Source: Nemertoderma westbladi (Eukaryota > Animalia > Xenacoelomorpha). Taken from it: a stretch of DNA of 64,000 bases. The notes beneath the pieces were generated by a model. The model was given only the letters and a program-made list of their open reading frames with translations. It ran no database searches and was not told the DNA's origin. The stretch lies in contig JAUCBJ010007342.1 of assembly GCA_032718475.1 (NCBI GenBank), positions 1-64,000 on the forward strand, written 5' to 3'. Made by a program: the position numbers and the translations under genes. Below are positions 1,331 to 31,503 of the stretch, piece after piece. The first letter of the stretch is position 1, and the number at the start of each line of letters is the position of its first letter.

Positions 1331-1359
1331 CCACTCGTTCCACTCAATCCACTAAGTAG

Positions 1360-3393
1360 CCATTATACTTAGTCGCACTAATGTAGATCAATGGAGACAT
1401 TGCCCTGGGACGATTAATCCAGCTGACATCGCCTACAGAGGAGCAACTCCTCAAGAACTGATAGATACTCCAGACTGGTTAGGTGGACCCGACTTCCTAA
1501 GTAAAGAAGAGGATGAATGGCCTCCTCATCTCACCACGGCTGAGATTAGACAAGCCAAGGGAGCGGAGAAAGTCAAACCTAAAACCCGGACGAGTAAATC
1601 AAAGTTATTCAAACCCGTGATAGATATGTCTGTACTACACATTTCCGGGGACGACGCTGTGGATCTAAACTCCCCTTCAACAAATAAATCCGTTGTAGAA
1701 ATCAGAGAAAGAGACTGGAAATCTGGAACACCAGACGTCTCACAGGGACTCTCACCTCTCCTGCAGAGAGCGATAAATCACTATAGTTTTCACTATATTT
1801 AATCGGCTTTGTAAGGCCGTCGTGTATTTGAAGCGATGCTTCCATCATCACTACTCCAGGATGAAGATCATTAGTGATACTGCTCCAATCACATCAGCGC
1901 AGGTTCATGCTATTAAAGATCTTCCCATGTACAAGGTGCCAGATAGGTTTCTGACGGAGAAGATCAGTTATCAAGAGCATGAAGAAACCAATAAGCAGAT
2001 ACTGAGACTCCTGCAATGCTATGAAGATTCCGATAAGTATTTCCTGTTGTTGAGAAATCCACAGACGCGCTTAAGGGATCGTTTCTCTAGCACAATGATA
2101 GATGGGTTAATACGTGTTGGAGGGAGACTAACTAATGCTCCATTGTCATTTAACACTAAATTTCCCATACTCATTAGAAATCCTGAAATACAAATCAAGA
2201 TGATTGTAGATGTTCACAGTAAGCTTTACCATGATGGTAGAGAACGAGTTCTTAGCGAAATTCGAACTCGCTATTATTTTCATAAACCCCGTAGAGCTCT
2301 GAACCACGTTCTTAGGAACTGTATACCCTGTAGGAAAGTATTCAGTAGGCCTTTAACACAGCGAGAGGCAGAATTACCTAGGGAAAGAGTAAGTTTCTAT
2401 GAACCACCCTTTACTAATACCGGTGTGGATTTATTTGGCCCTATAGAAGTATATCGTGCTAGGACTATAGTCAAGCGATGGTATGTCATCTTTGTCTGTA
2501 AGACTTGTAGAGCGATCCATCTAGATATGGTGAACGATCTATCTACCAACAGCTTCATACTGAGCTTACGCCGACAGATCGCTCGCTTTGGTACTAGCAA
2601 CACGATGAGATCTGATAAGGGAACAAACTTTATTGGCGCCAATAATGAGATCAAAGCTTACGTTAGGGATTGGAACCAAAGACAGGTGGACGATCAGCTA
2701 AGGGTAACAGCATCTAGCTGGACCTTCAACGCCGCCGACGCCCCTTGGTGGGGAGGAAGTTGGGAGAGATTGATAAGGAGCGTGAAGACCGCATTTCACT
2801 TTATAGTGCCTTGCCGCGCGTATCTCACCGACGAACTTTTGCGGACGTTAATGGAGGAAATCGCCGCCTATCTTAACGAGAGACCGCTTATGCCAGTCTC
2901 ATCGAGTCCCGACTCCCTAGAAGCGCTAACACCCGCGCATTTCCTACTGAAGAAACCTGTAGCCATGCTCCCATGATCGGAAATCACGGACGGAGACGAA
3001 TACTGCCGACAAACTTGGCAACTTATGCAGTTATTATCCCATCATTTCGCTGACCATTTCAAAAAACATTATCTGCCTACGCTACAACTTCAAACCAAGT
3101 GGTTTGTGCAGCAAGAAAACGTCAGCGCCGGAGACATGGTCCTTATTGTGGAATCAGATCTTCCACGTAAGCGGTGGCAGACAGGTCGTATCATCGAGAC
3201 TCATCTATCCGATGATGGTTTAGTGCAATCGGTAGAACTCGTCATCATGCGACGTAACTTTAATAAACCTGGAATTGTATTCGAAACACAGAAACTCAAT
3301 CGCCCAATTGGTCGTTTATGTTTACTGGAAAGAGACAGAGAACTATCCGGAACTTCCCTAATCCAACAAACATCTAGGGACTCCCCAACGTAA
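1360..3393 (+). pseudogene. BEL/Pao pol C-terminus (end of RNase H, HHCC zinc finger, DDE integrase, C-terminal DUF5641-like region), with a frameshift near 1802 and an in-frame TGA at 2974-2976
   Basis: GLIRVGGRL, HSKLYH...CIPC, PPFTNTGVDLFGP, RAIHLD, SDKGTNF, PWWGGSWERLIRSVK, LTPAHFL, YLPTLQLQTKW, GRIIETH. Confidence 0.92.
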
Positions 3394-5107
3394 CCGCGTC
3401 TGGAGTGGGTGTGTGACTATATTATTTTATATTTGTTTTAATATTTTTATATTTATGTATGTATTATTATGTAATTTTATTATAATCGTTTTCTTTAATT
3501 TTATTTAGTAGAATGTTATTTTAGCGATTATTTAGTAGATTAGTGCAATATATATATTCGTGTTTATTACTTAATTACTTATATTATATATTTAGTGCAA
3601 TGGCGAGAAATAATTATTTTTATCTTTCCTTACTGTCTGTATCATATTATAAATGCGAGACTACAGTAAGATGAAATGTCCGTACTTATTAAAGTACAAT
3701 AAAGCTCCTACTATATTCAAGTATTATTGGTAAGTAGAGTATTAGGAATGCAAAGTTCAGATCCTCGTGTCTCGGCTAAACCAAGCTCTGGGTAGACCTT
3801 GGAAACGACTTGCCTCTTCTCACTGACATTGCTCCTTGCAATATTGCTCTCATACCGTATATTAAATAATACATATAGTAGCGTGATGTCCCTTTAACAG
3901 TAGCGTGAAATGCAAAATAAATCTGTTAAACCCTTTGACCATCTGTAATTCTAGTCGATTAAGATATCGCGGCACCCACCGATATACTTGAAAGACAAAT
4001 TTCTAGAATCAGTGGTTAACGTCCCCAGACAAGTTCTGGAATAATTCGGTGCCCATCTTGAATATTAATTATTTAATATTTACAAAATCTGTTAAAACAA
4101 ATGTTACAATAGCGTAAATGCTAAGAAATTAACTCTAGAAAATCTATAAATCAAAATCTGTTACAATTTAGATCCTCTAAAATTCTAGTCGATTAAAATA
4201 TCGTAGCACTTACCGATACTCTTAAAAGGACAAATTTCCTAGAATTAAGGATCCTAGTCCCGAGACATGCTCTGGAATAAAATTGTGTCTATTTTAGTGT
4301 TAAATAATAAAATTTACAGGAATAATTTTAAATTCATATCCTCTCATGAATTTGATAAATTGTCATTTTATACAATTTATAACATTCCCAAAATTCCATT
4401 AATTAATAGATCATGGGAGCAGAGATTCACCCTATTAAGTATATTAGTGTGCGAGAATCTCCAATATCTAGTCAATAGCCGATAAAATTCATAAAATCAT
4501 GTATAAAGGGGAATATTGACAATTAAAGAATTACTATTAAATAGCATCCCAGATCTGTATGCATGAGAATTACCCTAATTCTACTGCTAGCTTCCCATAA
4601 TGTCACCATAGCAACAACCATGCTAGAATTAGAAGCGAGTTAAAAGAACAATGGAAAGCTTGCCCCATTGAATAGCATATGGAATAAATAGCACACTGCT
4701 AGTATCCAGGGATACATAATAATAACGTGGCATTCTGGAAGGCAATTGACTAAGGGACAAATGGCCCGAATGTGTACAATTTGTGACAGTTGTGTTGAAT
4801 TTGTGCGTTTATAGGTGAATGTTACTACTAAAGTGTGTTTACAGTAGCGAGTTGCAGTTGTGAAAGTAGCCCTACCTCTGTAGCAATAACCTGAAGTAAA
4901 TCTAAGCCCTTGGGACGGACAGTGGCTCGAGTGACTCGCGCTGGTTGTTGTTGTCGTTGTGTAGCTACTACGTTGGCGAGAGGCACAGCGACGACAGTAC
5001 ATCAGCGCTGAGGATCTTGCGCTGTCCGGGGGCATTGAAGGGTAGGCAGCGAAGACCGCTAGCCTAAATATAATTAATTATAATATCGATAAACTCATAC
5101 AGCCGCT

Positions 5108-6434
5108 ATGACTGAGTTGAAAGAAGATGATCTTGGAATCAGGGAGCGATATACCCTACCATTGCAAGCATTTGTTGATAGTTTAATACGTGGTGACAGT
5201 AGTCAACCCGCTACGGAGGACAATGGCCGTTATATCAAACTGCCAATGTCAAAGGAACAGCACAAGCGTGAATTGGACTATAGAAAATTCACCACTCGCT
5301 ATACGCATCATAATGGTACGTATATGGACTTCTTAACTACTGGTCATCCTATCGATGTACACGATACGGACAATGTAGACACCGAAAGGGAAATAATCCT
5401 ATTTAAATATCATACCCAGCGGAGTCGGAACTAAAAAACTGAAGTCGAACACGAAAAATTATATTCGAAATCGACTCGAAAGAGAAGATGTTAAAGAACC
5501 GGATAAACGCAGTGACTTCAACGTATATTTGGAATTCTTGAGAGAAACATTGTAAAACTGGTGAAATATCACCCGCGTTTCCCCTACAAGACGTGCGTCT
5601 TTGGTATTATTACGATAAATGCCCTAGACCCAACCAACACATGGAAAGACATAAACATCCGCGGAGACGTTGCGTTAAACACAGTTTTACTCGCTATATT
5701 TATGGGAGTTTCGAGCGAAACTTGTTCGACGTATCACCTACGCTCGCTGGACTCAAAAGATCTTTAAATAAACCTATGATCAGAGTTCCAGAATACTCGG
5801 TCAGATCTCCTCATTCCCTGGTGAGACCTCAGACTCTTGATCCTAATAGTATCACGGATCCTCCTGAACTATACTCACTATTCAAAGATCTAGTATTACC
5901 CGAACAATTAATTGGTGGCACTCCGGTAGTGGGCTCTCTAGATATCCGCCCATCCTACCTAGCCGGATTGGGACGTGGACATTTAATATCATCCTGGTTT
6001 AACCCAATACAACCCGACACCGAGGTAGAGGAGAGCGTTGTACGAAACGCGTTAGACGCTATTCGACAAAAGATCGGAAAAGGAACCTACAATTGTTTAG
6101 ATAAACATAAATTGCAGCAGCAAGTCCAAGCGGTAAAATAATTAGCTTCACCTCAGTTCGATCGGGAAATCCAGAATCTCGAAGAAGATATCGAACTTGG
6201 ACGACCCTACTCTCTGCAAGAGTTTTGGACGAATGCTTTCAACGACAAGCAGAGGAAAATCAGCTTGAGGAGAAGCATATCAATTCCGATAGAGCCCGAG
6301 AACGCGAGTTGGAAAGAATCATCAAACCGAAGAAATTTCTCACTACTCACGGTCAACCTACCGCTCTCGTGCACACGACCCGTCAGGGACCAGTAAGAGC
6401 TGCTGTCTTGAAACGCGCTCTAAAGGTTGTTTGA
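5108..6434 (+). pseudogene. Fragmented accessory ORF of the first BEL element, apparently homologous to the N-terminus of the 27047-30745 ORF
   Basis: ORF pieces 5108-5434, 5593-6141 and 6225-6434. Collinear motif matches: NGRY/NGKY, TTRY/RTRY, IDVHD..EREI/LDVCD..DEEI, RCVKHSFTRY/RCPAHQFLRY, PMIRV/PMISI, TLDP/TLDP, LYSLFKDL/LYQAYKDL. Confidence 0.65.
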
Positions 6435-6719
6435 CCTCGTTCTACGGAGGTTGATATCGATCAACCGGGTACCTCGACCTGCGGATACACCGACCGTAAC
6501 CCTAAACCTTCTGATGCAATTGTATTGCACCTCTTACCCAGGAGTTATAGCCCTCCTAGTAAAGTGGCTCGCCCCTAAGAGAAAAGGACTCTTGCTAGCC
6601 TCAAAAAACTGCGTAAATGCCGTTCACGTAAGAAGGACTAACTGTTTAGAGTATTTTTATATTTTAGAAACTGTGATTTTTTATATTTTAAAGAATTAAA
6701 TCCCATTTTCTGGGAGCGG

Positions 6720-7260
6720 TGTAAAAGCTTTTGCGGACATAACTAGTCATTTTTCCCGCAATGTACCGTATAGGTGCTTTAGCGGACATAACAAGCAATT
6801 TTTCCGCAATGTGCATAATACTCTAAAAAGATTGTAGCTCAGATGACGAAATCTGTCAGCTGATTTCATGTACACGTGGAACCTCTCTTTGTTCTGCTCA
6901 GCCAATCAGAGCGATTTTCACTTTATTCCTCAAGGGCCTATGTAAAACCGCGCAATGCATTACGGTCTTTGTTTACCTTTCTTAGCCTAAGAACCGGCTT
7001 GGAAATCTTCTGTACTTCTGTTGTAGAAGTTTCAGACTTTGGCCAAAACATTAGATGGCTTTGATTACAAGAACGTAAATCTATTATCTGCTGGCACTGC
7101 TGGCCACTTGCCACCTGGATACACTAACTGAGCAACACCAACTGTAATCAACACTGCAATTATACAGTATGCATTACGTTCACCGCATTATTTTACTTCT
7201 GTTTACTGTCTGTTATTAATTGTTGTATATTGATGGATATTTTGTTATATTTGGAGAACA
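6720..7260 (+). repeat. Candidate 3' LTR of the first BEL element (TGT...ACA, about 541 bp)
   Basis: Starts with TGT directly after the purine tract GGGAGCGG and ends in AACA just before the minisatellite. No partner LTR in the window, so the 3' end is uncertain. Confidence 0.5.
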
Positions 7261-7271
7261 CCGATAAATTG

Positions 7272-7548
7272 ACGCTACTCCTACCTGCTACCCGAAGGTA
7301 GGGGTGGGCGCTACTCCTATCTGCTACCCGAAGGTAGGGCTAGGTGCTACACATATCTGCTACCGAGGGTAGGGGTGGGCGCTACTCCTATCTGCTACCC
7401 GAAGGTAGGGGTGGGCGCTACTCCTATCTGCTACCCGAAGGTAGGGGTGGGCGCTACTCCTATCTGCTACCCGAAGGTAGGGGTGAGCGCTACTCCTATC
7501 TGCTACCCGAAGGTAGGGGTGGGTGCTACACATATCTGCTACCGAGGT
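7272..7548. repeat. 33-bp minisatellite (GGGCGCTACTCCTATCTGCTACCCGAAGGTAGGGGT-type), about 8 copies; reverse complement of the arrays at 52653-53798 and 62006-63646
   Basis: Directly visible tandem units. Confidence 0.95.
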
Positions 7549-8120
7549 TAATATGATATCTAAAGTAATAAATAAAAAGTAAATAAATACTGCAATAATG
7601 GTGATAGTAGTTGTAGTGATACTGTAGTAATAGTGGCAACTGCTAATACTGCAAATTAATTTACTGTACCTTTAAATTACTTAATAATTTTTCAATAAAT
7701 ATGAACAATAATTAATATACATTAAAATGAACCATTTAATATGGATAAATACTATCAAAAATAACATTGGTAGCGAAGTAAGTCTGTCGATTAATGTTTA
7801 TATCTTGGTAAACCTACAGTTTAGTAAAGTGGTGCCATAAAAGTGGTACAATTGTAAAGTGTAGGCAAAGGGACGACATGTGCAGTTATCATTCATGATA
7901 TTGTAAAAGTAGCATCCACTAGAGAGTTCTCCTAAACAAGTGGGCGGCGGCGGCCTCTAGTTGTCATGACGTATAATATATAAATATTGTCATGATAAAG
8001 TTTCCCGCATGACAAATATAGTAAACGACTTCAGCCAATATAATTAATTATAGAAAACATATAACAATTAATTAATTAACATTTCAATAAAACATCAATT
8101 ACATAACTAAGGTAGCCCGG

Positions 8121-8441
8121 TTTGTATCATTGGAGGTGTCTCATTGGTTCCCCCAAGTTTGATACTAGAATCAAGCCTCCTCCACTTTGCAGGACATTGC
8201 TTTCGCCGTGAGGACCTGCCAGTGCATAATCTTGTGATATGGCAGCCTCATAGAGTGAATAAACATGGTGGACAGCCCATGACTTTCTTGAGGCGCATCT
8301 TAAAGGACACTGGCCTTGACGATGGGGGGTGATAAATCAAATGTCATGTGTGATAGGGAGTTGTGGTGGCGCAATTTTGTCGACAAGCCGGCACAGCATT
8401 CTTAAAAATGCAGCTGCAATGCAGCCTGCCGATACTAGTAA
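8121..8441 (+). mobile_element. 5'-truncated RTE LINE 3' end (second RTE family)
   Basis: Encodes LHFAGHCFR...LVIWQP...GGQP. 13-bp TSD TAAGGTAGCCCGG at 8108-8120 and 8442-8454. Empty site in the inverted copy at about 50091-50110. Confidence 0.88.
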
Positions 8442-8545
8442 TAAGGTAGCCCGGCACGGTTAATTATATAGTATAATTTTTGTTTTCCAACTTTAAGGCC
8501 CACGCAAATTCGAAATGTCAAGCTACTACAACTCACTGCAAAGCC

Positions 8546-10437
8546 TACGGAGCCCCTAAAGGGAGATGGGTTCCCCTTTTTTTTCTAAGTCCGGCCCGGA
8601 GATACTAAGTCTGGCCCGGAGATACTAAGTCTGGCCCAGAGATACTAAGTCTGGCCCGGAGATACTAAGTCCGGTCCGGAGATACTAAGTCCGGCATGGA
8701 GATACTAAGTCCGGCCCAGAGATACTATCTAAGGCCCTGAGATACTAAGTCCGGCCCGGTGATACTATCTCATTCCGCACTGAGATACTAAGTCCGGCTG
8801 GAGATACTAAGTCTGGCCTGGATATACTTTCTCAGGCTCGGAGATACTATGTCCGGCCTGGAGATACTAAGTCCGGCCTGGAGATACTATCTCAGGCCCT
8901 GAAATACTAAGTCCAGCCCGGAGATACTAAGTCCGGCTCGGAGATACTAAGTCCGTCCTGGAGATACTATCTCAGGCCCTGAAATACTAAGTCCAGCCCG
9001 GAGATACTATCTCATGCCCTGAGATACTAAGTCCGGCTGGAGATACTAAGTCTGGCCTGGAGATACTTTCTCGGGCCCTGAGATACTAAGTCAGGCCCGG
9101 AGATACTAAGTCTGGCCTGGAGATACTATCTCAGGCCCTGAAATTCTAAGTCCAGCCCGGAGATACTATGTCCGGCCTGAAGATACTATCTCAGGCCCTG
9201 AAATACTAAGTCCAGCCTGGAGATACTATCTCATGCCCTGAGATACTAAGTCCGGCCCGGAGATACTAAGTCCGGCCTGGAAATACGATCTCAGGCCCTG
9301 AAATACTAAGAGATGGTCTTCAGCAGGGCATGTTGATAAAATAATTTTATGTAATTTCTGTACTGAAATTTCGCAAATCTCACCAAACAGCCCCCTCCCC
9401 GCATATTATCTTTCATTCTTACTCCTACTTACTCAATATTTTCTCTGTTGCTCTTACCACTTTACTACCGAACTCTCAACCCCCCTCCCCCATCCCACAT
9501 CCTTATCCCGCAGGGCCCAGTGGAAATTTAAGTTTAATTAGCATGGTTTACCGCCATGAATGTACAGTAGATAGTATACTATAGAAGATAATTTCAGGTA
9601 CGAATATATGTGTACCTTAGGCGATCTTGTCATGATCGTGTTACGATCTTAGTAGATTGTCTTTGAATCATAGCAAGATCTATGTAGATAAGCAACTATG
9701 TTGTTATTTCGCAAACACTTAACTATTAATTGACTCATGGGTTAGGACTCATGTGTAGAAGATAAATTAAAATACCTAAAAATTGTCACTTACCGGTTCA
9801 AGTCTTTAACGATCTTGCCAAGATCATGTCATGATATTGACAGAATTATAATGCATTAAGATTTTTGCAGGTACACCACGGTCATAGCATGATCATCCAA
9901 GATCTTTGCAGATTCAAAAAGTTGCTAGTCTAGAGCCACCCCACCCCAGTTTGCCAGTCCCACTTATTACTCAAATTGAATTTCCCTCCAGGCCAGAGAT
10001 ACTATCTCAGGGACTGAGATAGTATCTCCGGGCCGGACAGTATCTCAAGGCCTGAGATAGTATCTCCGGGCCTCAGATAGTATCTCAGGGCCGGACTTAG
10101 TATAGCAGGGCCTGAGATAGTATCTCCGGGCCTGACTTAGATTCTCCGGGCCGGACTTAGTATAGCAGGGCCTGAGATAGTATCTCCGGGCCTGACTTAG
10201 ATTCTCCGGGCCGGACTTAGTATCTCCGGACCGGACTTAGTATCTCCGGGCCGGACTTATTATCTCTGGCCCAGACTTAGTATCTCCGGGCCGGACTTAT
10301 TATCTCTGGCCCAGACTTAGTATCTCTGGGCCGGACTTAGTATCCCCGGGCCTGAGATAGTATCTCCGGGGCGGACTTAGTATCTCTGGGCCAGATTTAA
10401 AAAAAGGGGGAAACCCATGCCCTTTAGGGGCTCCGTA
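8546..10437. mobile_element. Non-autonomous TIR (foldback-type) DNA transposon, IS3EU-like
   Basis: TIR TACGGAGCCCCTAAAGGG.../...CCCTTTAGGGGCTCCGTA. 6-bp TSD AAAGCC/AAAACC, supported by the empty site at about 49995-50010. Inverted subterminal arrays of a 20-bp unit (CTAAGTCCGGCCCGGAGATA) at 8585-9310 and about 9995-10395. Confidence 0.8.
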
Positions 10438-10557
10438 AAAACCACTATCTATATATTTATATTAGGCCTACATATTTTGTTACATGGAGCTTGGATTTAT
10501 TACTGTTTACTTTGAATTGGAACTAGGCAGTTTAATTTGTAACTGGGTGCTCATATT

Positions 10558-11470
10558 TGTGGGATTATTTTACTGTTAAGTAAGATATCTACAGTACTAT
10601 GTAAAAACTTTCTAAATCCAACGTATTTTGCCTTGATTTGTAGTTGTTGTAATTTGCCTATTACCTACAATAGTTATAATTTCACTTGGGATTCTATTGG
10701 CGCAGTGATCGAGAAGGTTAAGGTCTCGGGTTACATTCTAAATAGGTCAGGGGTTCGAATCTGGGTCGGTAAATTTTTTATTTTGGGCTATTATATTTTC
10801 GGTTTCATTAATTTAGATAAGCCAGGGGTGCGCGTACAACACGTATCGCAGGGCACTTAATAATTTATTGCTCCAATGTGCATTCGTAGAATGTTGTAGA
10901 ATGTTCTAGTTGATTCCATGCTTAGGATTTGCTATATAAGGGGCTGTTTGCCATTCGGTTATCACTAATACTTATTACTTACTATACTAATACTTATTAA
11001 CTTACACTTTACTTGCTTAGTTCACTTCAGTTAACTTAGCTTATTTAGTCTTACTTTAGTTTAATTCGCCTTTGTGATTTTGTATAGAAAATTTGAGAAG
11101 TCTTGTAATTACATTAAAATATACTGCAAACTCTTAGACATACTAGTTTTGACGTATCTATCTTGAGACAGCCAAACGCTTCGGGGGAATGGCTGCCTAG
11201 ACCGTTAGGCTTCAGCAACACAAGGAGGAAAGATGTCCACGACGCATTAGGGAGCCCACATTATCTTCGCCCACGCCCGTTAGAGAGTATGCCTCACTGC
11301 CTGAGAACGCCCTCATCAGAGGAAGGTAAGACTTTGTTTGACGCCCTTGCCCACAGTAAGACCTTAGATCAGGGTAAAGCGTGACGCCGTCCTGGGACGC
11401 CATAAAATTTAGGATCAAATATCTCAGATATTCAGACAGGAAAAAAACCGGTCAACCTGTATCTCCTACA
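10558..11470 (+). repeat. Possible LTR-like remnant
   Basis: Begins with TGT where homology to 49882 ends. TATATAA at about 10934, ATTAAA at about 11113, ACA at 11468-11470. No TSD or partner found. Confidence 0.25.
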
Positions 11471-12790: not shown

Positions 12791-15700
12791 CAGGTCAGGT
12801 CAGGTCCCCAGATCCTGCTACCACTATGGCAGTAATGTGGTACTACCTGTAGTTGTCAGCCCAGTAGGGCAGGCCCGATAAGCATAGCCTATTCATTATT
12901 TAGTTGATCAAGAGTGGGTTGGTTCAGCCCCGTCAACTAAATAAGTCATTGAGGGCTATAGCGCCTTGGGCACCATTGAAGGCAAAGGCTTGATACGCAT
13001 CTGCATTAGAGATGATACACGCCCCGCCCTGTCTATACTGGATGCTCCCCTACCAGTGTTAGTTAACCTAACCCAGGAGGCACACTTGGTTCAGGGTGTA
13101 ACAAAAGGACCCCTACAGTCGGCAGCAGGGCTGTAGGCCATGGATAGGCGGAAGGTAATCAACCAACGGCTAGACATGCTGACAATGTCGGCGGAAGGTA
13201 ATCAACCAACGGCGATCTACTGCGAAGACGCTTGTAGGAGTTGCGACCACAAGCGATTTACTCCCGCAACTGAAAGATATGAGTATGAGAACCCTCCAGG
13301 AGAAATACCGGCTCGGTCGTCGCCCGGGTCAACAAGGACCGCGTCCCCCAGTGGTACACCAGGCTGGGGTCGATAAATTGGCTACTGGAACAGAAGACCG
13401 AGAAGAAAGAAGAACCAACCTGTTGAAATGTAAAAAGACACTAAAGATTGCTACAATGAACGCACGCACGCTGAAAGCACATACCAAACAGGGTGACATG
13501 GTCGCTCTGGCAATGGAATATAACATCGACATCATCTGCATCCAAGAACATCGGATTTGTCATGAAGACACTGCCATGAAGTACAATGACATTGGAAATG
13601 GATGGACGTTAGTAACAAGCTCAGCAGTAAGAAACTCGGCCAATGCATCAATTGGTGGAGTAGGAATTCTGCTAAGCCCATTTGCACTTAAGACCCTAAA
13701 CAACATCGAATCTATAAATTCCAGGGTTATGATCGCAACATTTGATGGGAATCCCAAGGCAACAGTTATATGTTGCTACAGTCCAACCAATGCCTCAGAG
13801 CCAGAACAAGCAGTCAAGTTTTATGAAGAACTGACTGGACTTATAAAGGACATTCCGAAACACAATGTTAAAGTCATTGCTGGTGACCTGAATGCCCAAA
13901 TTGGCCCAGAAGACATCAAGGGTTACACCTATAACACCAGTTCTAACAGAAATGGGTACTTACTTTTAGACCTAATGGAAGAATGTGAATTGATACCAAC
14001 AAACAACACATTCGAAAAGAGTAAGGGGAAGCTATGGACCTTTCAATACCCTAATGGAACCAAAGCACAACTGGATTACATCCTCATAAACAAAAAGTGG
14101 AGAAACAGCATGATCAACTGCGAGGCATACAGCTCGTTCAACCTAATTGGTTCGGACCACAGAATTGTGACTGCAGAGATCAGACTCAGTTTGAGAGCCA
14201 GCAAACCCAGGACAAGCAAGCAAATCAAATATGACTGGGAAAAACTCAGAACTGACAATGCTGTAAAGGATGCTTATACAGTAGAAGTTCAAAACCGCTT
14301 TGAAGCACTTCAGTCAATGGATGAAGACCAATCCACCAATTCAATATACCAGAATATAATAACAGCCCACAAGGAATCAGCTAAGAGGCATATCCCCCAG
14401 AAACCCAAACGAAAACAATATGTGCCATGGCAAAACTCTGAGGTTACTTGTAAGAGAGAAGATCTTAAGATAGCCTACAAAGTTAAAACCGAACAACCAA
14501 CAACCGAAAACATTAACAAGGTTGAGAAAGCTAAGGACGATCTTAAATTGGCCTACAACATCAGCCAGGAAAAGTACATACAGGATAAAACTGAAGCAAT
14601 TACAACTGCTCACATACAGCAACAATCAAGACTTACCTGGCAAACTGTAAATGAGGTATCTGGTCGGAAAAGTTGTGCAAAGGGGCGCCTCAAAGCCGAT
14701 AGTCCTGAAGAACGTGTTGGGAAGTGGAAAAATCACTTCAGCAACTTGCTTGGGCAGCCACCAAACATCGAGGTCAGCCCTACAAGGAAAATATATGACA
14801 AGACACTACCTATAGAAACAGGGGACTTCACACCTGCCGAACTCCAAAGAAGCATTAAAAGCATGTCCAATAATAAAGCGAGTGGATTAGATGAAATCCC
14901 AGCGGAGGTATGGAAAACCGGAGTGCTAAACAGACCATTATTGAATGTTTGCAACCGGATGTTAAAAGGGGAAAAGCCACCACCAATTTGGACTAAAGGT
15001 CAACTAAAGCCTCTCCCCAAGAAAGGAGACCTCGGCATACCAACAAACTATCGTGGGATCTGTCTGCTTGTGGTAGCTGCCAAAATATACAATAAAATGA
15101 TTCTATATAGGATTAGGCCTCACATAGAGAAACTACTGCGTAAGAGCCAAAACGGATTTCGACCAAGTAGATCAACAATAGCTCAGATACTTGCACTACG
15201 GAGACTGATTGAAGGAATTAAGTCAAAGAATCTCCCCGCTGTCATGACTTTTGTGGACTTCAAGAAGGCATTCGACTCCATCCATAGAGGTAAAATGCTT
15301 GAAATCCTAAGAGCTTATGGAATACCAGAAGTAATTGTTGCTGGCATTGGATTGTTATATTGTGACACAGAAGCGCAGGTACTCTCACCAGATGGTGAAA
15401 CTGAGTTTTTCTCAATCCTGGCTGGCGTACTGCAAGGTGACACATTAGCACCATTACTATTTGTAATTGTGCTGGATTACGCAATGAGGACGGCCACAAA
15501 GGGTGAAGACCTGGGATTCACACTTCAAGAACGCAGAAGTAGTAGATATCCGGCAACTACAGTCACAGACACCGACTTTGCGGATGACATCGCCCTGCTC
15601 TCTAATACCCTAGCAGATGCACAGCTTCTACTAAATAAAGTGGAGAGGGCTGCTAAGGAGGTTGGATTGCATATAAATTCTACAAAGACCGAATTCATGA

Positions 15701-16335
15701 CCTTTAATGTTGATGGAAACTTGACAACCATTGATAATAATCAACTAAGGAAGGTCGATGACTTCCAGTACCTTGGATCATGGATAGAGAGTAGCAAAAA
15801 GGACATAGAAGTTAGGAAAGCAAAGGCTTGGGTAGCTCTATCAAAAATGGATACCATCTGGAAATCAGATCTCTCCAGGCACCTGAAGACTAAGTTCTTT
15901 CGAGCCACAGTGGAAAGTGTATTTTTATATGGGGGTGAGACCGGGACACTGACTAAATCACTTGAACAACGAATTGATGGTTGCTACACAAGACTACTAA
16001 GGGCAGCCCTAAACATCAGCTGGAGACAACACATGACAAACGCCGAGCTTTATGGTACAATACCACCTGTATCAACCACCCTCCGTGAACGCAGATTAAG
16101 ATTCAGTGGGCACTGCTGGCGAAGTAAAGACGAGGTCATACCAGATCTACTTTTCTGGCAACCAACTCATGGAAAGCATAGTCGTGGACGACCGGCCATA
16201 ACATATATAGATCAACTTGAAAGGGATACTGAACTTGGGAGAAACGAAATTGCGACAACTATGGAGAATCGGGAAGCCTGGAAGGATCTCATTTCCACTG
16301 TCCGAGTTCGCTCGACCTAGTAGTAGTAGTAGTAG
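12791..16335 (+). mobile_element. Full-length RTE-clade LINE with about 490-bp 5' UTR and (TAG)n tail
   Basis: Single APE-RT ORF whose stop codon is the first unit of a TAGTAGTAG tail. Imperfect ATATAAATA-type flanks; the 5' boundary is approximate. Confidence 0.9.
13279..16320 (+). CDS. RTE retrotransposon apurinic-like endonuclease plus reverse transcriptase, intact, 1013 aa
   Basis: IATMNART, CIQEHR, GGVGILL, GDLNA, LDYIL, SDH (APE). NYRGICL, FVDFKKAFDS, GVLQGDTLAP, FADD, YLGS, RLRFSGHCWR, GRP (RT and RTE C-terminus). Confidence 0.96.
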   Translation: MSMRTLQEKYRLGRRPGQQGPRPPVVHQAGVDKLATGTEDREERRTNLLKCKKTLKIATMNARTLKAHTKQGDMVALAMEYNIDIICIQEHRICHEDTAMKYNDIGNGWTLVTSSAVRNSANASIGGVGILLSPFALKTLNNIESINSRVMIATFDGNPKATVICCYSPTNASEPEQAVKFYEELTGLIKDIPKHNVKVIAGDLNAQIGPEDIKGYTYNTSSNRNGYLLLDLMEECELIPTNNTFEKSKGKLWTFQYPNGTKAQLDYILINKKWRNSMINCEAYSSFNLIGSDHRIVTAEIRLSLRASKPRTSKQIKYDWEKLRTDNAVKDAYTVEVQNRFEALQSMDEDQSTNSIYQNIITAHKESAKRHIPQKPKRKQYVPWQNSEVTCKREDLKIAYKVKTEQPTTENINKVEKAKDDLKLAYNISQEKYIQDKTEAITTAHIQQQSRLTWQTVNEVSGRKSCAKGRLKADSPEERVGKWKNHFSNLLGQPPNIEVSPTRKIYDKTLPIETGDFTPAELQRSIKSMSNNKASGLDEIPAEVWKTGVLNRPLLNVCNRMLKGEKPPPIWTKGQLKPLPKKGDLGIPTNYRGICLLVVAAKIYNKMILYRIRPHIEKLLRKSQNGFRPSRSTIAQILALRRLIEGIKSKNLPAVMTFVDFKKAFDSIHRGKMLEILRAYGIPEVIVAGIGLLYCDTEAQVLSPDGETEFFSILAGVLQGDTLAPLLFVIVLDYAMRTATKGEDLGFTLQERRSSRYPATTVTDTDFADDIALLSNTLADAQLLLNKVERAAKEVGLHINSTKTEFMTFNVDGNLTTIDNNQLRKVDDFQYLGSWIESSKKDIEVRKAKAWVALSKMDTIWKSDLSRHLKTKFFRATVESVFLYGGETGTLTKSLEQRIDGCYTRLLRAALNISWRQHMTNAELYGTIPPVSTTLRERRLRFSGHCWRSKDEVIPDLLFWQPTHGKHSRGRPAITYIDQLERDTELGRNEIATTMENREAWKDLISTVRVRST

Positions 16336-22502: not shown

Positions 22503-23480
22503 CTAAATACCGTCCTTGTACCTGTGGTAAAGGTTGGGATTCAAAGTCCTGCGGGTCATTTCGTAGGCGTAAAAAAGCGCTGCGTTCGCAGGAAAACTGC
22601 GCACAACTGTCGGCGCCAAACCGCTGTAGAGTTTAGGAATACCTCCACTCCTGTAAATATCCTTAGCAGTGCTAATAATCCCGGAGGAAACCCCAGTCTG
22701 AACCTGCAGACGCGACTTAACCACGTCCATGGGGAACACCGAAGTCCAGAACGAAACGCCGGCGATCACACCGCACAGCATGAGTCGGAAGGGTCCGATA
22801 GTCTCCTTAGATTCGCCTTCTTTAGCGAGGAGATTGCGACTGAGTTCGTAGCCGCCGAAGAAGAAAAAATAGCCGGGGACTTCGCGGACCACGGTGCTCG
22901 CGAAACCTCGGTAGAACCCCGCCAAACCGTCCTGTCTGTAAACCGAGGCGACCAGTTGTAAGGGGCCTTCGATACGGGTAGATATTCCCGAGTGTTTCGC
23001 GGCTTCTCGCATCGCCTGTAGCCGGCATTTAATCAACTCTGTAGGGCAAAGCACAGTCGAAGCGAATAGCGCCGCTCCGCTGCCCGCCAACGCGTTATGG
23101 AATGCGTTCAACCGCTCCGGCCTGTCGATACCGCAAGCGTAGGAAACGGTTTTCTGGCACAAACCGTAGCTCATAAAGAGCACCGAATTTTCGGCGATGT
23201 TAGCGGCGAGGGCTGGCACCGACCCAGCGTATAGACCGCGAATTCCCTCGAATTTAAATGTGTTTAAGAAACAGTTTGTAGCTCCGCGGTACTGCTCCGG
23301 GAAGGTCTGGAGTTTCACTTTCACAGTGTCCAGCGGTTGTCCGGCGGCCACGCACGCTGTCCCACCCATGGCCCCGGCGATAAAGTCCACGAATGTGTCC
23401 CACGCGTGGCTCGATGTGCTGTGGACATGTTTCTGTTGTAGGTGTTCCACCTGGTGTTGGATCAATGAAGGTTCCCCCAT
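22503..23480 (-). CDS. SLC25A15: Mitochondrial carrier, ornithine transporter ORNT1-like, single coding exon, 325 aa
   Basis: Three Px[DE]xx[KR] carrier motifs (PLDTVK, PTELIK, PMDVVK). ORNT-typical GGTACV..GQPLDTVKVKLQTFP, ANIAENSVLF, REVPGYFFFFGGYE and RSFPANAALF. Confidence 0.9.
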   Translation of the reverse strand: MGEPSLIQHQVEHLQQKHVHSTSSHAWDTFVDFIAGAMGGTACVAAGQPLDTVKVKLQTFPEQYRGATNCFLNTFKFEGIRGLYAGSVPALAANIAENSVLFMSYGLCQKTVSYACGIDRPERLNAFHNALAGSGAALFASTVLCPTELIKCRLQAMREAAKHSGISTRIEGPLQLVASVYRQDGLAGFYRGFASTVVREVPGYFFFFGGYELSRNLLAKEGESKETIGPFRLMLCGVIAGVSFWTSVFPMDVVKSRLQVQTGVSSGIISTAKDIYRSGGIPKLYSGLAPTVVRSFPANAALFYAYEMTRRTLNPNLYHRYKDGI

Positions 23481-24354
23481 GGTAGCATCGATGACTGGAC
23501 TGGATAAATTAGGCCTACAGAATTAAATATTTGTAAATTTTTAACGAACCATAGGCAGATAGGCCAGGGGTGTAGGCCTACACCAAGGACTACTAGGCCC
23601 TATACTATATTACCTATACTATATACCTCTACTATATTACCGTACAGGACTGGAACACCCCTTCATCCGACTTCGCTAGCGAAGTCCATTGGTTTGGTAT
23701 TGCTTTACAGCTTTAGGCCCTATCACCTATAAACAGATAAAGCTATACTGCTGTACTGTTATAGACATTAATGTTATCAAAGGATTTTCATGAAATTTAG
23801 TACACTCAATCGTAATTATTAATAACATAGGCCTAATATATCAGTATATTTTGGTGTCAAGAAATAAAGGACGAACGCAGCGAGGCTTGTAACAAAGGGG
23901 ACGAGTGTTGTGTACTGTGTACTAACTATTCAATATAGTCTAGCTAGAGCGACCGTGTTTAGTACATTGTGCGATATAAAAACGATGTGAAAAGTATCCC
24001 TATTGGTCTGTTGGTAGGGGAATGTTGTGACACAGATGATAATGTATTCAACTAGCGGTATCAGGCAGTCGCAGTATGCCATTCCTGTAGTATAGTAGTC
24101 CTTGGCCAACATTAATAAGGGCCTGGCTGCCTGGTGGTGGTACGGTACCTGGACAAGTCCCTAAAAAAGCACCCTGCTCCATAGCGCGGGAATTTCAAAT
24201 GATTGAAAGACATGTAATTTATACTGGAAAGGGTGGCAGATCAGATCTGCCACCTATATTTTGGCGGTAAATTCAAATCTGTTTTAACATTGAATACATG
24301 AATAGAGTAAGACCAAGGACTACTATAGGCCTACTACAGGACTGGCATACTGCC

Positions 24355-26559
24355 TGATAAACAACCGCGACCTCTATACTAACAGCAGAACTGTTGAACA
24401 GACCAATACCCGTTAATATCCTTCTGCCAACCTAATAAGTTCTCGCCTATCCAATAAGACACAAAGACTGCTCTACTGTTAAGTAAAGGGGATCAGGAGC
24501 GTGCTATTACTAAATTGTAAGGGTTGCTAAATACAAAACCGCTACTTACCGTTGGATGGCGCTAATCTGCCGTCCGCTAATATATTTTACTAAATTTACA
24601 CAACTCCTGCAAAATCGCTTGTTCCTTTCTCTACCGATCGCTCGATAGAGAGCTAACTGTTCGAATCTATGAGCCACGCGGGAATAACCAAAACAATAAA
24701 CCCGAGTCGGCTCCCTAAGCTTACTTAAGACGAGTGCGAGAGGCCTTGCACTCAGAGTATTCTTACGCCTAATTCTATCACTTATTAAAGCACGCTATTA
24801 CCTACGTCTTTCCTAATCGCGAATACTGGAGGTTCCCTAACGTAATGTGTGAATGCGAGAATATTTAAAATAATCAAAAATGGTACAGTAACTGTTTCTA
24901 CGTGGATAGTACCACTCCGAGTCTAAAACTGCCCGCGGCTGGCTTTAGGCCAGCAAAACTACTAGCGTATCGTGCGTACCGAATAGTGCGTTCTAGCTGA
25001 TTGCCCGCTAATGCAAATAACCGCTCAGCGTGAATAGTTTACAGTACACTAATTATTACCTTAGCTACTCTCCGCTATGCTGCGTACTAATTCTTAATTT
25101 TTACTAATTAATTACAGTCACAAATATTTAACAGCGTACTAATTACTAAGAGTTCCAGAATACGTAATTCTAATTTATCACGCAACAGGTTTCGCTAGTA
25201 ATAGCCTAAATTGCCGTATTACTTTGACCTAATCAATAACTAATTATTGTAACTAAGAAATAGAAATCAATCAAAGGGAAAAGAGCGCCTATCTAAGCAT
25301 TCGTAATCATAGGCACACTTCAATAACACACCAATCAGCGTTAGAAATCACAGTTTACAATTGTGCAATTCACTACTCGTACTCCACACTCAACGTTGTA
25401 ATACGCGCAGGCCTCTCCCGGATACATCTAGGATTCCTAACTAACCCAATTCCTGCCCCCCTAATACTAAATAGAGACAAAACCTGGATCATCAGCCCCC
25501 TAGATACTGTACCAGCGATTGGTCTGCGTGCCGCAGTGCAAGATACCCGCCCGCAACGGTGACCCTGGCCAGCGTTGCCCGCTTTGAATCCTCCGCTCTC
25601 TCCTAGTCGCTCAACCCCCCGATGCGCCCACCGCCCACTGGCACCTTAGCCCTCCATGATGCTAATAGCTACCGTAGCGGCGCATGCAAATCACAAAGTC
25701 TGACAGTCTCAGAAATCCCTTAGGATTATTGCGCAGAAAGGAATCACATAGAACCATTAATCAAAGGGTAGAAATCATAGTTCAATTGTAATTAGCAGCA
25801 ATCGAAGGAATTATTGAGAAACACAAGCAAAGTAATCGCACTAGCAAATCATTCCAAGAAATTAATCAAAATTAGCAAATTGCAGAAAATACGATATCCT
25901 AATACAAAATTAGAGACAGCTCAGCAAGTAAATTGTAACAGGGGTGTGTCATGTGATAAGTAAGGGTATACAGTATTAACAGCATGAACATATAGGTTCT
26001 ACCGGCACACCGCCAATTTATAGGTGATCCGGATGGGGTGATGCAATAAGGTGACTCAATCGCTCTCCCATTGGCTCTCCAGTCCGTGCTAGCATTAAAC
26101 CAACCTGGAAGCAGTTAGTCCAATAAGGAGGCCGGATTGTAGTCCTATTGCCTGCCCAAACCTCGAATTATTACCTTATATGGTAATGGTTCACGTCCCT
26201 GGCCGCTGAATGGCCAGGACAGCGTCCCTATATGATAGCCCTACTGATGCTAATATCAGCAAGCACAAAATCCAGGGTCCGAATAAACTTGCTACCCTGG
26301 GACTATCTACATATATCCTAATACAAAATTACGTAGGTAGGGCTACATACTATACAAAATGGATGGATGCAAAATATATGGGCGTTTTAACTTCCTTACC
26401 TAAATGTCACCGCACTGTGCCTTATCTAAATAATTATACTGCACAACGGACTAATATTACGTACAGTATAACGGACTAATATTGCATACTGCATAACGGA
26501 CTAATACTGCATACAGTATAACGACTAATAATGTGGATACAGCGCCATATACCGTAACA
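24355..26559 (-). repeat. 3' LTR (2205 bp)
   Basis: Near-identical to 41005-43208; by eye about 7 substitutions and 2 small indels. Confidence 0.97.
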
Positions 26560-27046
26560 CCGCTCCAAGGGAAATCATATAATGTTTCCCTCCAATTGTA
26601 GAAGAGTATAAGGTGATGTATACAAAACAAAATAAATTTCTTCCAACCAATCTAAATAACATAATAATTCTACTATTTACAAATATTGCCATAGATATTG
26701 CATAATGAATTACATACAAATTAAATTTACAAAATATTATCTCTCTCATTGTTTAACGATTATTACATACAAATTAAATTTACAAAATATTGTTTCTCGT
26801 TCATTCTTACTACATAATGATTACTACATACAAATCAAATATAAAATTTTGCTAGGGCAAGTGAAAGGAGTAAGCCAAACCCGCAGGTTTGTCTCCCCAA
26901 TCACTTCCTTCGCCTCTTTCATAATATAAATTCAAATAACTCAACTAGTGTATACGAGTCTAGTCGAAGATTTTCAAATGCTACAATATACATCAGAGCG
27001 ACGATGATGTATATATCTAGAGTCTGTCGCCCTATGCCATAATGTA

Positions 27047-30000
27047 TTATCGACCCGCTCCTGGGTTCTTTGGGCTCGCTCCTCTCTTTCGCCCCCTCCC
27101 CAGATACACTAATCTACCTCCAGTCGACTCCGCTGACGGCGTTCGTGAGGCGTCACTCCCCGGAACTGGCGACGACGTTCCCTGAGCCCCGACAGATTCT
27201 CGGCTTGAATTTCTCCCTCGGCCTCGTCCCAATTGTCGCGCTCCCGTGGTCGCTTCCGCCAACTCTTCCTTCTGCAGTTGCACACGCGCTTTCTCCGACG
27301 CCCCCTGCGCCTTGCGCTGCAACCGTTGCGCTTCTATAATTGAGTGGTAGTGGTCGTCCTTGACTTGACGCTTGTCTTGGACCTCTCCTCCTGGTTCTTT
27401 CCGCGAGCCTTGAGCTCCAGCGGTTGTCGCTGTGGTCGCTGCGATCCTTTGTTCCTGTATCCTCTCAGCGGTCAATGAACCCACTGGCACATGAGTCAAC
27501 AAGAATTCGTTGCGGTATTGTATAGCCGCCATCCTCCAATCACCTCGCGCGCGTACCACTTTTCTAGTCTCCGTAAATACACCCTTCGTGATGCGATAGC
27601 AAATAGCAACGAAGTTCCATGTGTACTTATTGTCCATGTTCAATTGTCTGAAGTATTCTCGGACTACGATAACTCCAGTGTTCTGTGGAAGGTCTTGAGC
27701 AGTTAGGATGAGCTCCTGATATTGTGGTAGCGATTGTAGATATGGCTCGTACGCAACATGCGATGGGTCTACCGCTCAAAACCCATATCCCGCTTTAAAT
27801 GGTAACCAACGCATCTGCGCTTGAATATGGTAATCCGCCACACTCTCCCACTTGTCTAACATCTCCCGAAGTAGGTTAGCGCTATGGTTTTGAAAGGAAT
27901 CATCTCGCAGCTGACATCTCGCGCTACGATGTCCCTTTACCCCACAATATCCACATTGAGAAACGAAGACGGTGCACGTATGAAACGAATGGTCGGTCTC
28001 ATTACACCAACGACAGACCTTATGTGCCGCCTCTACTACCGCGTCGCACGACTTTAGATTGTGCCTTGTGCTGCCGCACAATTTGCACCTACGCGCTTGT
28101 GGAAACCAGGCCCTCTCGTATATGAGGTCTCCAATTGGTTTCGCACTTCCTTCCTTCCCAATGTCTAATACGATGTCGTCCTCTCCAGTCAACGGTTGTC
28201 GATCCGGAACAAAGTAAACATCCTCGCCCTTGTCCTCTATCTCCAATATTTCCTCCCGCGTTCGTTTCGGATATGTCTTCTCCACCGGAAGATCTACTCC
28301 GAACACCTCTACTAAAGTCTCCGGCCAGCCCTCCTTAACAGGTCTATCAGCCTCCGAGAGGAAGGGAGTACCAAACCCGCGGGTTTGATTCCCGAACCAC
28401 TTCTCCAAAGCTTCTGGCGTCGGATATTCCATCGACGGTCGGTCTCCCAAATCTCCGATGTTCTGTCGATATACTCCTTCGAATATCGCTAATCCTCTCC
28501 TCACCATCGACGTATTCTCTAACGACTGGTTGAAGAACGGGGTTAAGAAACGCTTCATCACGTCGGATTGGATTCCCCCTTTCGAGCGAACGTATTGATC
28601 TCCTCCGAATACCAATGGATGACGCTTCAAAACTCGCGCAACGATATCCGCTAATAAACAAGTCACCGTGTTCGACTCAAGCACCAAATAATATTGTAGC
28701 GACGCACGGGGTGGCGCGCAAATGTTCCAATACACTAACGCTTGCCGCTTGAAGTGGGATTTGAACTCCGCTCCCGGTGGCGTGTTGTATTCGCCATACG
28801 CCTCCTCATACTTCCTTTGCGTCTTTAACTTAAAGTCCCAATTATACAACAAGTGTGCTATAAAGCCCATACCAGTCTTGGCAGAGTTGGGATACTCCCT
28901 ATAAATTCCAATATCCTGTGCCCATAGCAACAATAGCTTGGTGTCGACAAACGGTCTCGGCAATCTATCTTCCAGATCAGTCATGGCGTTGAAGTCGCTC
29001 TCCAAATCGCTCTGGACTCCCGATCCCACCTTGACGTAATCTTGGTTGAGAATAGCCTCTCTAACTTTCTTTGGTAACATCCTGGCGTCGATACGCTCCG
29101 CTCCGTGCATACCTCCTCGCCTGCATACCTCCAAAATCTGCTCCCTAGGATCCTTCCCCTTCCGATATTGTGTCGTTATGATGGGCTCCGGTCTCTCTCG
29201 ATCCGCCCTCACACGCATAAACACATGAGTCACACCATCGGCCGCACGAATTTGAATACACTTGCTGGTCAAACATTCCTGATGGGACCCTCCTTCATTG
29301 TCGTAGAACATCACCCTCCAATCCTGCAGTGATTCCTCCGTCTTCCTCCACTGACGCTGAATCTCGTCTGATGGGGTCCACATGCGCTCGATAGCCTTGT
29401 GGTCATCATATCGGGTATAAGAACCCTTCCTCCTCAGCCACGTCTGGTCTACCTCCTGGAATGTAGCCACCACGACCCATACCTTGATGTACTTATCCAA
29501 CCATCCAAATAGCTTACTCTCCTTCCCCGGAGCTCCAATCTTATCCAACGTGTCATAATCTGTGATCTGCATTGGGACATCACGCAAGAACTTCGCGCAT
29601 AAAACTTCCCGTAGACAGTCAACGTTCCAATGGTCCGCCATTCTTACCATCGGCAAGAATCGTATCGCTTCTCGCGACTCCGGATGATCTACTAATATCG
29701 CAGGTTCGGTGCCGTCGGAATAATACACCGGTCCGGGTTGAGATACGACCTGTGGAACAAATCCGGTCACTCTCCTCGTCTCCTCTTGATGTCTATCCGC
29801 GGTCTTATTATACTCCGCTATCCTGTTCTCAAATAACTCTTTCGCCTTCGCCGCTCGCTCCTCCTGCCGCAACGCGTCTATGTCGTCCTGATGCTCAGGC
29901 GTGAGGCTTCTCACTCGGTGAGGTGAAGTAAACGTAGTCCAGGGACTCGAGAGCTCCAAACCCGCGGGTTTGGTACCCGAGTCCCGCGCCGCTTCGCGCC

Positions 30001-30745
30001 GCGCCTCTAGATCCTTGTAGGCTTGGTACAGCGAAATGGCCGCTGCCGTCTCTATCAAACTGGGTGTCGAACAGGGTTTAATCTCCGTATACGGATCTAA
30101 TGTCGTAACGGTCGGCGTAATGGGTCTCGGAGGTCGCTTTCCGCTGAAGTCGATACTGATCATCGGGTTGCTCATCGGGTAACCTCCCTCGTTGTATCTA
30201 AGGAATTGGTGAGCTGGACATCGCGTTAATATCGGTTCCGGATGTTGCTCGTCTAATCGGTCGGGAATCGCTACGTCCTGTTTATTCATGCATTCACCAC
30301 ACTTGTAGAACAGCTTGTACACGCTGAAGACTTTCGGCGTCTCCTGATCCTCACCTCGAGTCCTCCGGTACAGATGCATTCCGTCGAACTGATCTCGGAC
30401 TGCAGGTAGAGGCTCCTCGTGTCGTAAATACATATTCATATGGTATAGTCGTGCGATTTCCTCGTCCGGGTCTGCGCTAATGTCACACACGTCCAAAGCG
30501 AAGTCGTAGGGATACCGCGTGCGATACTCTTTCCGCAAAACTTCCATCCGGTCCCCCAACGCTCTCATTCTTTCTCTCCGTAATTCTTTATCATAACTTG
30601 GTTTGTACTTTCCATTTAGCTCCATCACGGACCGCCCATGGTAGTAAACGTTAGAGTCTTTACATCCTGGTCGCGCGAATGGTAGCTCCGCCTCCTCTCT
30701 GGCAGTAAATCCTCTGCGCGGTTGCGCTCTAATATCCCTCTCCAT
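27047..30745 (-). CDS. BEL accessory protein: N-terminal unknown/Cys-His domain, DEDDy 3'-5' exonuclease-like domain, three CCHC knuckles and basic RG-rich tail; 989 aa to an in-frame TGA at 27776-27778, about 1232 aa if read through
   Basis: VMFYDNE, CIQIR, LPKKVREAILNQDYVKVGSGVQSDL, FVDT, QYYLVLE. CKLCGSTRHNLKSC, CRWCNETDHSFHTC, CGYCGVKGHRSARC. The frame stays open past the TGA into ORF 27047-27643. Confidence 0.8.
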
Positions 30746-31503
30746 TATGTTACGCGTATATACATATATATATATCCCAATAAGTGCCGTTACGTAACCA
30801 ATTACACTGTGGGTAAATCAGTTAGATGTCGCCGAAAGACAGACCTCCCGAACCCCCCCCCGCCTTCCAGCAGTTCAGGTTCGACTCTCTAGATCCCGTC
30901 TCTTCCTAACTAACTATCCTCTAACCTATTCCCATGCATAGCGCAAAAACTTTGGAGATAAACTGGCCGTGACCAACTCACTTTTTGATGCCCAAACTAC
31001 TCCCATTACTCGTACTAAACTACAGTAGTTAGAAAGGACCATAGCCACAATACTCGACTATACCAAACCCACAGGTTTGATAATCGAACATCACACATCC
31101 TGCAAACTACTGAGTGGGGTCCATGTACGCCTCTGGTGCTACTAACCTTTAGCACCCTAGTTGCACCGTTGGCACCAATCTGTGGAAGTTGCTAAACTCA
31201 ATTTACACTCCTACGTAATATAGCCGTCACCATGGTTTCTAAATGCTATTTTCCAGGCTTCACGACTTTTCAAATTACTGTTATCTATAGACGAATTCTA
31301 AAACGCGTCTATACACAGCGTCTGGAATTGTCTTGGGTTCACTTTTAATTTTTAAAATTTTCTAATTTTCCAAAAATTTTGAAATAAAATTTTGTTTTGA
31401 TACCCACTAGACAAAACTCAACGCAAATCACCACAACCCCGCTCCTATGCATTTCCTTGTATTTGCATACGAGGAATGCATACGAAGTGAGTTGCGTCTA
31501 ACA

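Follow-up and report, generated by a model that had tools for sequence, protein, structure and literature searches.

A putative third gene in a decayed BEL/Pao element of Nemertoderma westbladi and its counterpart in a second, divergent element

Two BEL/Pao elements and their layout

The window, a 64,000-nucleotide stretch of contig JAUCBJ010007342.1 from the xenacoelomorph Nemertoderma westbladi, contains two BEL/Pao elements on opposite strands (Table 1). Element 1, on the plus strand, is a decayed copy, recognized as BEL/Pao by a BEL-type integrase that follows RNase H and carries a DUF5641 tail; as in Belpaoviridae, a polypurine tract (PPT) precedes its putative 3' LTR. An opposite-strand LINE (ORFs 3-1351) cuts off the 5' LTR of the element at approximately 1351, the 5' part lying beyond the LINE and outside the window. 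Two lesions interrupt the integrase, a switch of frame near 1790 and a stop codon at 2974-2976. Element 2, on the minus strand, is young and is flanked by a 5-bp target duplication (GGCAG). Its BEL/Pao features comprise the LTR pair, the target duplication, DUF1759, Peptidase_A17, YMDD, integrase and DUF5641. The integrase cores of the two elements are identical at 119 of 294 positions (40%).

Table 1. Features of the two elements (aa, residues of the element 2 ORF3)
Feature	Position	Strand	Remark
Element 1, RNase H end and linker (BEL)	1356-1802	+	42-44% to element 2 pol, E=3e-15
Element 1, integrase	1777-3393	+	Integrase_H2C2 E=1.3e-7; DUF5641 E=5.8e-21
Element 1, PPT-like site and TG	3402-3411	+	GGAGTGGG followed by TG; right behind integrase stop
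Element 1, AT-rich spacer	3412-5107	+	GC 0.34
Element 1, predicted splice-acceptor-like site	5074-5102	+	weak; ends 5 nt upstream of ATG
Element 1, ORF3 piece A	5108-5434	+	coding-like codon use; weakly collinear with aa 1-104
Element 1, ORF3 middle piece	5436-5555	+	other frame; no significant similarity to aa 101-135 (172/2000 shuffles)
Element 1, ORF3 piece C	5542-6141	+	contains shared Cys/His domain, ~5545-5892
Element 1, ORF3 remainder	6142-6641	+	from frames, stops and codon-use path; no firm homolog
Element 1, PPT core GGAGCGG	6713-6719	+	identical to that of element 2; PPT and TG at 6713-6721
Element 1, putative 3' LTR	6720-7260	+	541 bp, TG...CA; single copy in window
Element 2 (BEL/Pao)	24355-43208	-	18.9 kb
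Element 2, 3' LTR	24355-26559	-	2.2 kb; 99.5% to 5' LTR
Element 2, 242-codon open frame	27047-27775	-	in frame behind ORF3 stop
Element 2, ORF3	27776-30745	-	intact, 989 aa; N-domain, helical stretch, DEDDy-like exonuclease, three CCHC knuckles
Element 2, three CX2CX4HX4C knuckles	27914-28087	-	aa 887-944; invariant C/H columns
Element 2, DEDDy-like exonuclease	28600-29338	-	D482, E484, D580, Y686, E690 by motif alignment
Element 2, shared domain in ORF3	30008-30358	-	aa ~130-246; C149-x2-C152, H168, C176-x2-H179
Element 2, predicted splice-acceptor-like site	30807-30825	-	CTAAC...CAG; 62 nt upstream of ORF3 ATG
Element 2, PPT-like site and TG	31434-31445	-	behind integrase stop
Element 2, 5' LTR	41005-43208	-	

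In element 2, gag-pol is spread over three frames, the first ORF encoding a charged protein of 734 aa, and the overlap of the pol and integrase frames holds a short tandem repeat. The leader behind the 5' LTR has no TGG start. Its first 11 nt (40994-41004) are exactly complementary to 42048-42058 inside the LTR, a match with a chance of approximately 0.002, and this complementarity may be analogous to that of self-primed elements. The ORF3 stop that precedes the 242-codon frame could be either a leaky stop or a lesion of this copy; the frame itself has a weak PHROG match of unknown function (E=0.009). One type of hairpin (CAAACC-YGYG-GGTTTG) is dispersed through the element in eight copies, 1.1-2.6 kb apart and several of them within coding frames (minus strand: 26876, 28372, 29957, 31064, 33151, 35356, 37975 and 39573). 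The expected number is 0.5, none of 100 shuffles gets to eight, and the same tetraloop stem folds in all eight copies (z below -3.8 in four), making these hairpins candidate packaging or protein-binding signals. As a feature common to both elements the hairpin was discarded, since element 1 has no such family; the one similar sequence, at 3091, does not exceed shuffles in its folding (60/200).

Behind the integrase of element 1, the AT-rich spacer includes an internal duplication of ~235 bp (3919-4084/4154-4318, at 74%). Derivation of the spacer from the LTR of this element was considered and rejected, as the spacer resembles 6720-7260 in low complexity only. The coding-like path traced by codon use starts at 5108, switches frame near 5430, 5545 and 6250, and passes stops at 6139, 6432 and 6576 before the last one at 6639. 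The original prediction had let this stretch end at 6434; it runs on to 6641 instead. The ORF3 remainder, from 6142 on, includes a charged helix-like stretch followed by a basic tail. No remnant of an exonuclease or of knuckles was found in 3394-7260. A 36-bp tandem array begins just past the end of the putative LTR and may have cut it.

Other contents of the window include an intronless 339-codon frame just past the 3' LTR of element 2 (22503-23522), which may encode a mitochondrial carrier, putatively an ornithine-transporter-like one. A 1045-aa LINE ORF that looks intact, further LINE pieces and a 1545-codon frame that contains a 30-bp repeat as well as a protease-like stretch (all judged by eye) together occupy 13183-16320, 3-1351, 54114-57302 and 57151-61788. 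Tandem arrays of 36-bp and 15/17-bp units lie at 7273-7550, 52600-53800, 61980-63700 and 43400-48900.

Both elements present the same order of features on their own strand, namely integrase, PPT-like site with TG, AT-rich spacer, acceptor-like site, ORF3, AT-rich tail, PPT and LTR. The acceptor-like site is the single pattern match in the 761-nt spacer of element 2 and the last of five matches in the 1717-nt spacer of element 1. The motif GGAG(C/T)GG...TG has six matches in the window, four of which fall at paired sites of the two elements. The PPT-like sites behind the integrases (3402-3411 and 31434-31445) could serve as an internal primer for the plus strand, or be what remains of the end of a shorter ancestral element.

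The first of these sites could also be read as the true end of element 1, with 5108-7260 forming the 3' end of a different, tandem element. Such an arrangement would fit the position of the PPT-like site and TG directly behind the integrase stop, as well as the AATAAA and TATA matches, which are found in the spacer and are absent from 6720-7260; moreover, element 1 offers no 5' LTR for comparison. However, in element 2 the same PPT-like site lies between two LTRs that are flanked by a target duplication and is certainly internal, and no second gag-pol remnant lies between 3411 and 5108. A tandem element is thus improbable, and the integrase and 5108-6641 quite probably belong to the same element. 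This same-element reading stays short of proof because the 541-bp putative LTR has no partner in the window and contains neither AATAAA nor TATA.

Similarity of the two third genes

The original prediction paired five motifs of the decayed pieces with ORF3 of element 2, and all five pairs are present in the proposed order. IDVHD (5351) and EREI (5384) correspond to aa 84 and 94, RCVKH (5668) to aa 175, KPMIRV (5770) to aa 193, QTLDP (5830) to aa 214 and LYSLFKDL (5869) to aa 239; an additional upstream pair sets LWYYYDKC (5599) against LFYKCGEC (aa 145). The same pairing is recovered by MAFFT and by alignment with a low gap-extension penalty. Over 5545-5892 and residues ~130-246, identity is approximately 29%. 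The lack of similarity at the DNA level, noted at the outset, was confirmed by blastn (best E=0.7).

Frameshift-aware alignment combined with shuffling, the check proposed for this homology, came out in its favour. The local score of 60 obtained with the first 300 residues exceeds every shuffle (0/300 dinucleotide DNA shuffles, maximum 57; 0/300 protein shuffles, maximum 53), and the alignment is the best non-self tile of 96. With the whole protein, the score was reached by 0/60 DNA and 0/60 protein shuffles, and three further parameter sets each gave 0/100 residue and 0/100 block shuffles. The Forward score, which sums over alignments, is 49.9 for aa 130-250 against 5542-5900, compared with 27.9+-2.4 for shuffles (0/500), and 78.7 for aa 1-300, compared with 50.7+-4.1 (0/150). 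Real sequences used as decoys for the core score stay well below it, with a maximum of 37.2 among 928 DNA tiles (938 tiles of the window and loci scored, 10 overlapping the two ORFs set aside) and of 35.7 among 449 protein segments (462 scored, of which the 13 that came from the ORF3 N-terminus were left out). The sub-region limits of the best tests were chosen after the first alignment, while the ORF pair itself had been fixed beforehand by position.

Chance resemblance between two compositionally similar ORFs would be in keeping with the outcome of plain tblastn, which yields one weak match (E=0.017 in 12 kb) between aa 161-246 and 5629-5892, and with the similar scores of two alternative alignments of one stretch. 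Nevertheless, none of the controls reaches the observed score (0/500, 0/2000, 0/928 and 0/449) for a pair fixed beforehand by position, and coincidence is very improbable. As judged from sequence comparison, the strongest claim of this analysis is that a short unnamed domain is homologous between the two divergent BEL families.

The extent of the match is narrower than the first ~270 residues originally proposed: a core of ~115 aa (~130-246) is firm, the N-terminus is suggestive, and the part beyond residue 246 is unproven. Piece A and aa 1-104 share the collinear pairs NGRY/NGKY, IDVHD/LDVCD, EREI/DEEI and YH/YH, while the local score of this piece lies below the shuffle mean. When aa 1-104 were aligned to 5108-5425, the score was reached by 60/2000 residue shuffles (gap 11/1) or 10/2000 (gap 8/1), and by 255/2000 or 46/2000 block shuffles; an anchored Forward test of aa 1-135 gave 53/600. 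On the other side of the core, the Forward score of aa 247-450 against 5893-6640 was reached by 19/200 shuffles. Taken together, the core homology and the common layout support the proposal that homologous accessory ORFs occupy equivalent positions in two divergent BEL families.

A Cys/His domain and a probable exonuclease-knuckle module

Element 1 retains four of the five Cys/His residues of the element 2 N-domain (Cys 5620, His 5656, Cys 5671 and His 5680), with Tyr at the first Cys position. The shared domain is predicted to bind zinc; no third member of it was found with which the putative ligands could be compared. Searches of Pfam, PHROG, PDB, the atlas and protein collections gave no match to a described domain or zinc-finger family, so that the Cys/His domain remains, as originally proposed, an unnamed one without a relative in any library searched. 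No relatives of it were detected among 5619 candidates for the whole ORF3, among 866 candidates for piece C (proteins of at least 350 aa only), or in 102 metagenome and 133 viral stretches. Among 1.84 billion representatives there were likewise none, all five ORF3 matches being C-terminal, and a family profile search of 7989 candidates returned solely the profile's own first member. The domain is therefore known from two copies only, those of elements 1 and 2. Two structure predictions had pLDDT values of 35.5 and 40.5; the models were unusable and the fold search gave no match.

Neither ORF3 contains a membrane anchor, with a maximum KD19 of 1.34 over all five frames tested (19-residue windows), and neither Pfam nor PHROG provides an envelope match. 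These ORF3s are not envelope-like, since no 19-residue window exceeds a KD of 1.34.

The C-terminal half of the element 2 ORF3 has five relatives among the 1.84 billion representatives, all matching within aa 554-986. They have in common the exonuclease motifs and three invariant CCHC knuckles; D482, E484 and D580 align with them in Exo I and Exo II, while Exo III reads YxxxE, not YxxxD. The profile of the relatives matches EXD2 (E=2.8e-4; E=0.0037 for the exonuclease domain alone), and the knuckles match the retroviral nucleocapsid (E=4e-5). Pfam has no match anywhere in the element 2 ORF3. In the atlas, 10/10 best family matches are exonucleases, the top one being a euglenozoan exonuclease-CCHC cluster whose score of 0.88 lies below 0.9 and serves as a lead only. 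PDB entries 7c42 and 7c45, labelled 'CCHC-type domain-containing protein' and presumably T. brucei RND, match over the knuckles only. Going by these motifs and matches, the C-terminal module is likely a DEDDy-like 3'-5' exonuclease and a probable RNA trimmer. The combination of exonuclease and three CCHC knuckles is a family of its own.

Three of 183 metagenome stretches were confirmed as carriers of this module (L001, L002 and L003). Two of them, L001 and L002, are short contigs without a BEL gene. L003 encodes a BEL integrase tail (DUF5641, E=2.2e-7), followed ~150 bp on by a decayed exonuclease-like frame and knuckles (E=1.4e-21); the exonuclease frame exceeded shuffles for only one of four queries. 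L003 is rearranged over 6451-10951, where two decayed exonuclease-like copies are found and a DUF7153 piece (E=1.3e-14) adjoins the BEL integrase tail; a 150-bp repeat (87%) brackets this segment. In L002 (79-2025, P0006), the knuckle block is duplicated with a 585-nt spacing and the exonuclease is degenerate. Viral scans yielded no enzyme module (0/16 and 0/65), and L001-L003 gave no sign of the N-domain.

The notion of the N-terminal domain as a universal core is not supported in this form, for the exonuclease-knuckle module occurs without it in all five database relatives; the domain should rather be read as one of two separable modules. The modular presence of the exonuclease, also foreseen, is upheld by its absence from element 1 and by the N-domain-less enzyme module of the relatives. 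Because only one of two related ORF3s carries the exonuclease, the comparison suggests that these elements mix accessory modules.

Origin and possible role of the accessory gene

The preferred reading, to which we give a probability of roughly 0.55, is that 5108-6641 is the broken third gene of a decayed BEL/Pao element, a probably inherited non-envelope accessory gene for a putative zinc-binding scaffold, which in element 2 is fused to the enzyme module. Common descent of the accessory slot is, by itself, slightly favoured. Vertical inheritance of the accessory gene is plausible from two sequence data points and is the weakest claim; no BEL integrases for a reference set were found in 50 viral and 29 prokaryote-genome stretches.

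The module may instead have been exchanged. Template switching would then have carried the N-domain gene from one BEL family into the other, or into them from a different retroelement, and its presence would be uninformative on the sub-lineage. DEDDy and GDSL ORFs have been acquired independently and are common to unrelated retroelements in the cases described in PMC5408684; here as well the enzyme module travels alone, and both BEL families are present in one genome. However, identity is lower in the ORF3 domain (29%) than in the integrase (40%) and the RNase H end (42-44%), and DNA similarity is lacking, which argues against a recent transfer, and the doubled PPT is also common to both elements. 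Exchange is rather unlikely.

A more specific version of the preferred reading places the gain of the enzyme in an insertion: an exonuclease-knuckle cassette would have entered an element-1-like ORF3 near the TLDP motif, and the former 3' half of the gene would survive in the 242-codon frame. Segment 5827-5945 of element 1 ranks first of 1939 windows against the first 42 residues of that frame (4/2000 shuffles) and fits aa 213-254 of ORF3 less well (33/2000; block shuffle 401/2000). The global score is reached by 10/2000 shuffles, and the lengths agree (~510 codons compared with ~218 + 242), both products ending with a charged stretch and a basic tail. Nevertheless, the match of 5827-5945 was unplanned and picked after the fact, the rest of the 242-codon frame has no match (142/300), unanchored Forward tests gave only 19/400 and 36/200, and aa 213-480 of ORF3 likewise show a weak anchored signal (5/300). 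An insertion at this point is unlikely, if somewhat less so than an exchange between families.

Under the preferred reading of an inherited gene, ORF3 would be translated, like env genes, from a spliced subgenomic RNA, as the acceptor-like sites suggest. As a scaffold for binding to RNA or to the particle, the shared Cys/His domain would coordinate zinc, and together with the charged helical stretch that follows it would anchor the protein there. In element 2, this putative scaffold is fused to the separately travelling DEDDy-like exonuclease-knuckle module, which probably trims RNA 3' ends. The preferred use of the exonuclease, in the handling of host small silencing RNAs or of the element's own RNA, is a tentative suggestion, with the odds somewhat against it. 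The most far-reaching version, an undescribed clade of oversized BEL/Pao elements with a non-envelope slot (second PPT, splice acceptor), a new zinc-binding scaffold and an inserted trypanosome-RND-like small-RNA trimmer or silencing suppressor, is decidedly doubtful.

Enzyme-type ORF3s, including DEDDy-type ones, are described as common to several retroelement classes and as typically translated from spliced RNA, DEDDy-type ORF3s being known from the bdelloid rotifer LTR elements Juno and Vesta (PMC5408684). The likeness to Juno and Vesta encompasses a non-envelope ORF3 behind pol, an RNase D-like exonuclease, an altered acidic motif and family-specific presence, and two bdelloid DEDDy ORF3s have a Cys-His-Cys motif (PMC5408684). 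In contrast, the rotifer carriers are not BEL/Pao but Ty3/gypsy elements, the comparison being one of description and not of sequence, and the available text of PMC5408684 describes neither a triple CCHC array nor an N-terminal domain common to an enzyme-less family. None of the sequence searches brought up the DEDDy ORFs of Juno, Vesta or Athena. The accessible parts of PMC6338049 and PMC6431247 cite rotifer cases only.

Belpaoviridae have metazoan hosts, genomes of 4.2-10 kb, LTRs of 0.2-1.2 kb and a tRNA primer-binding site (PMC8742986). Element 2 differs in its 18.9 kb, its 2.2-kb LTRs and an ORF3 without a membrane anchor, while the gag-pol order and the third gene slot before the PPT are alike (PMC8742986; PMC3118150). 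The third genes of BEL/Pao on record in the available text of these sources are env-like (PMC8742986; PMC3118150). The open literature yielded no case of a DEDDy or Cys/His ORF3 in a BEL/Pao element; Repbase, subscription papers or supplements could hold one.

Among cellular proteins, T. brucei RND resembles the element 2 ORF3 in having a DEDD exonuclease followed by CCHC fingers, and its C-terminal fingers are described as holding the RNA to be trimmed (PMC7797062). This likeness is one of architecture to a cellular protein with four fingers, and element 1 has none of it. Maelstrom and EXD1 are comparable as DEDD-derived, Cys/His-bearing RNA-binding proteins of small-RNA pathways (PMC2628886; PMC5408684), and an EXD1-like cluster is the second atlas match of the enzyme module (0.79); they differ in being host proteins, and the shared N-domain has no Pfam match to any family.

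The third gene of BEL/Pao elements has so far been described as env-like or absent. A related non-envelope gene kept at 40% integrase identity implies long selection on some function. Two copies, one of them decayed, provide a lead for a genome-wide survey and not an established lineage. Elements 1 and 2 offer a natural comparison with and without the DEDDy module.
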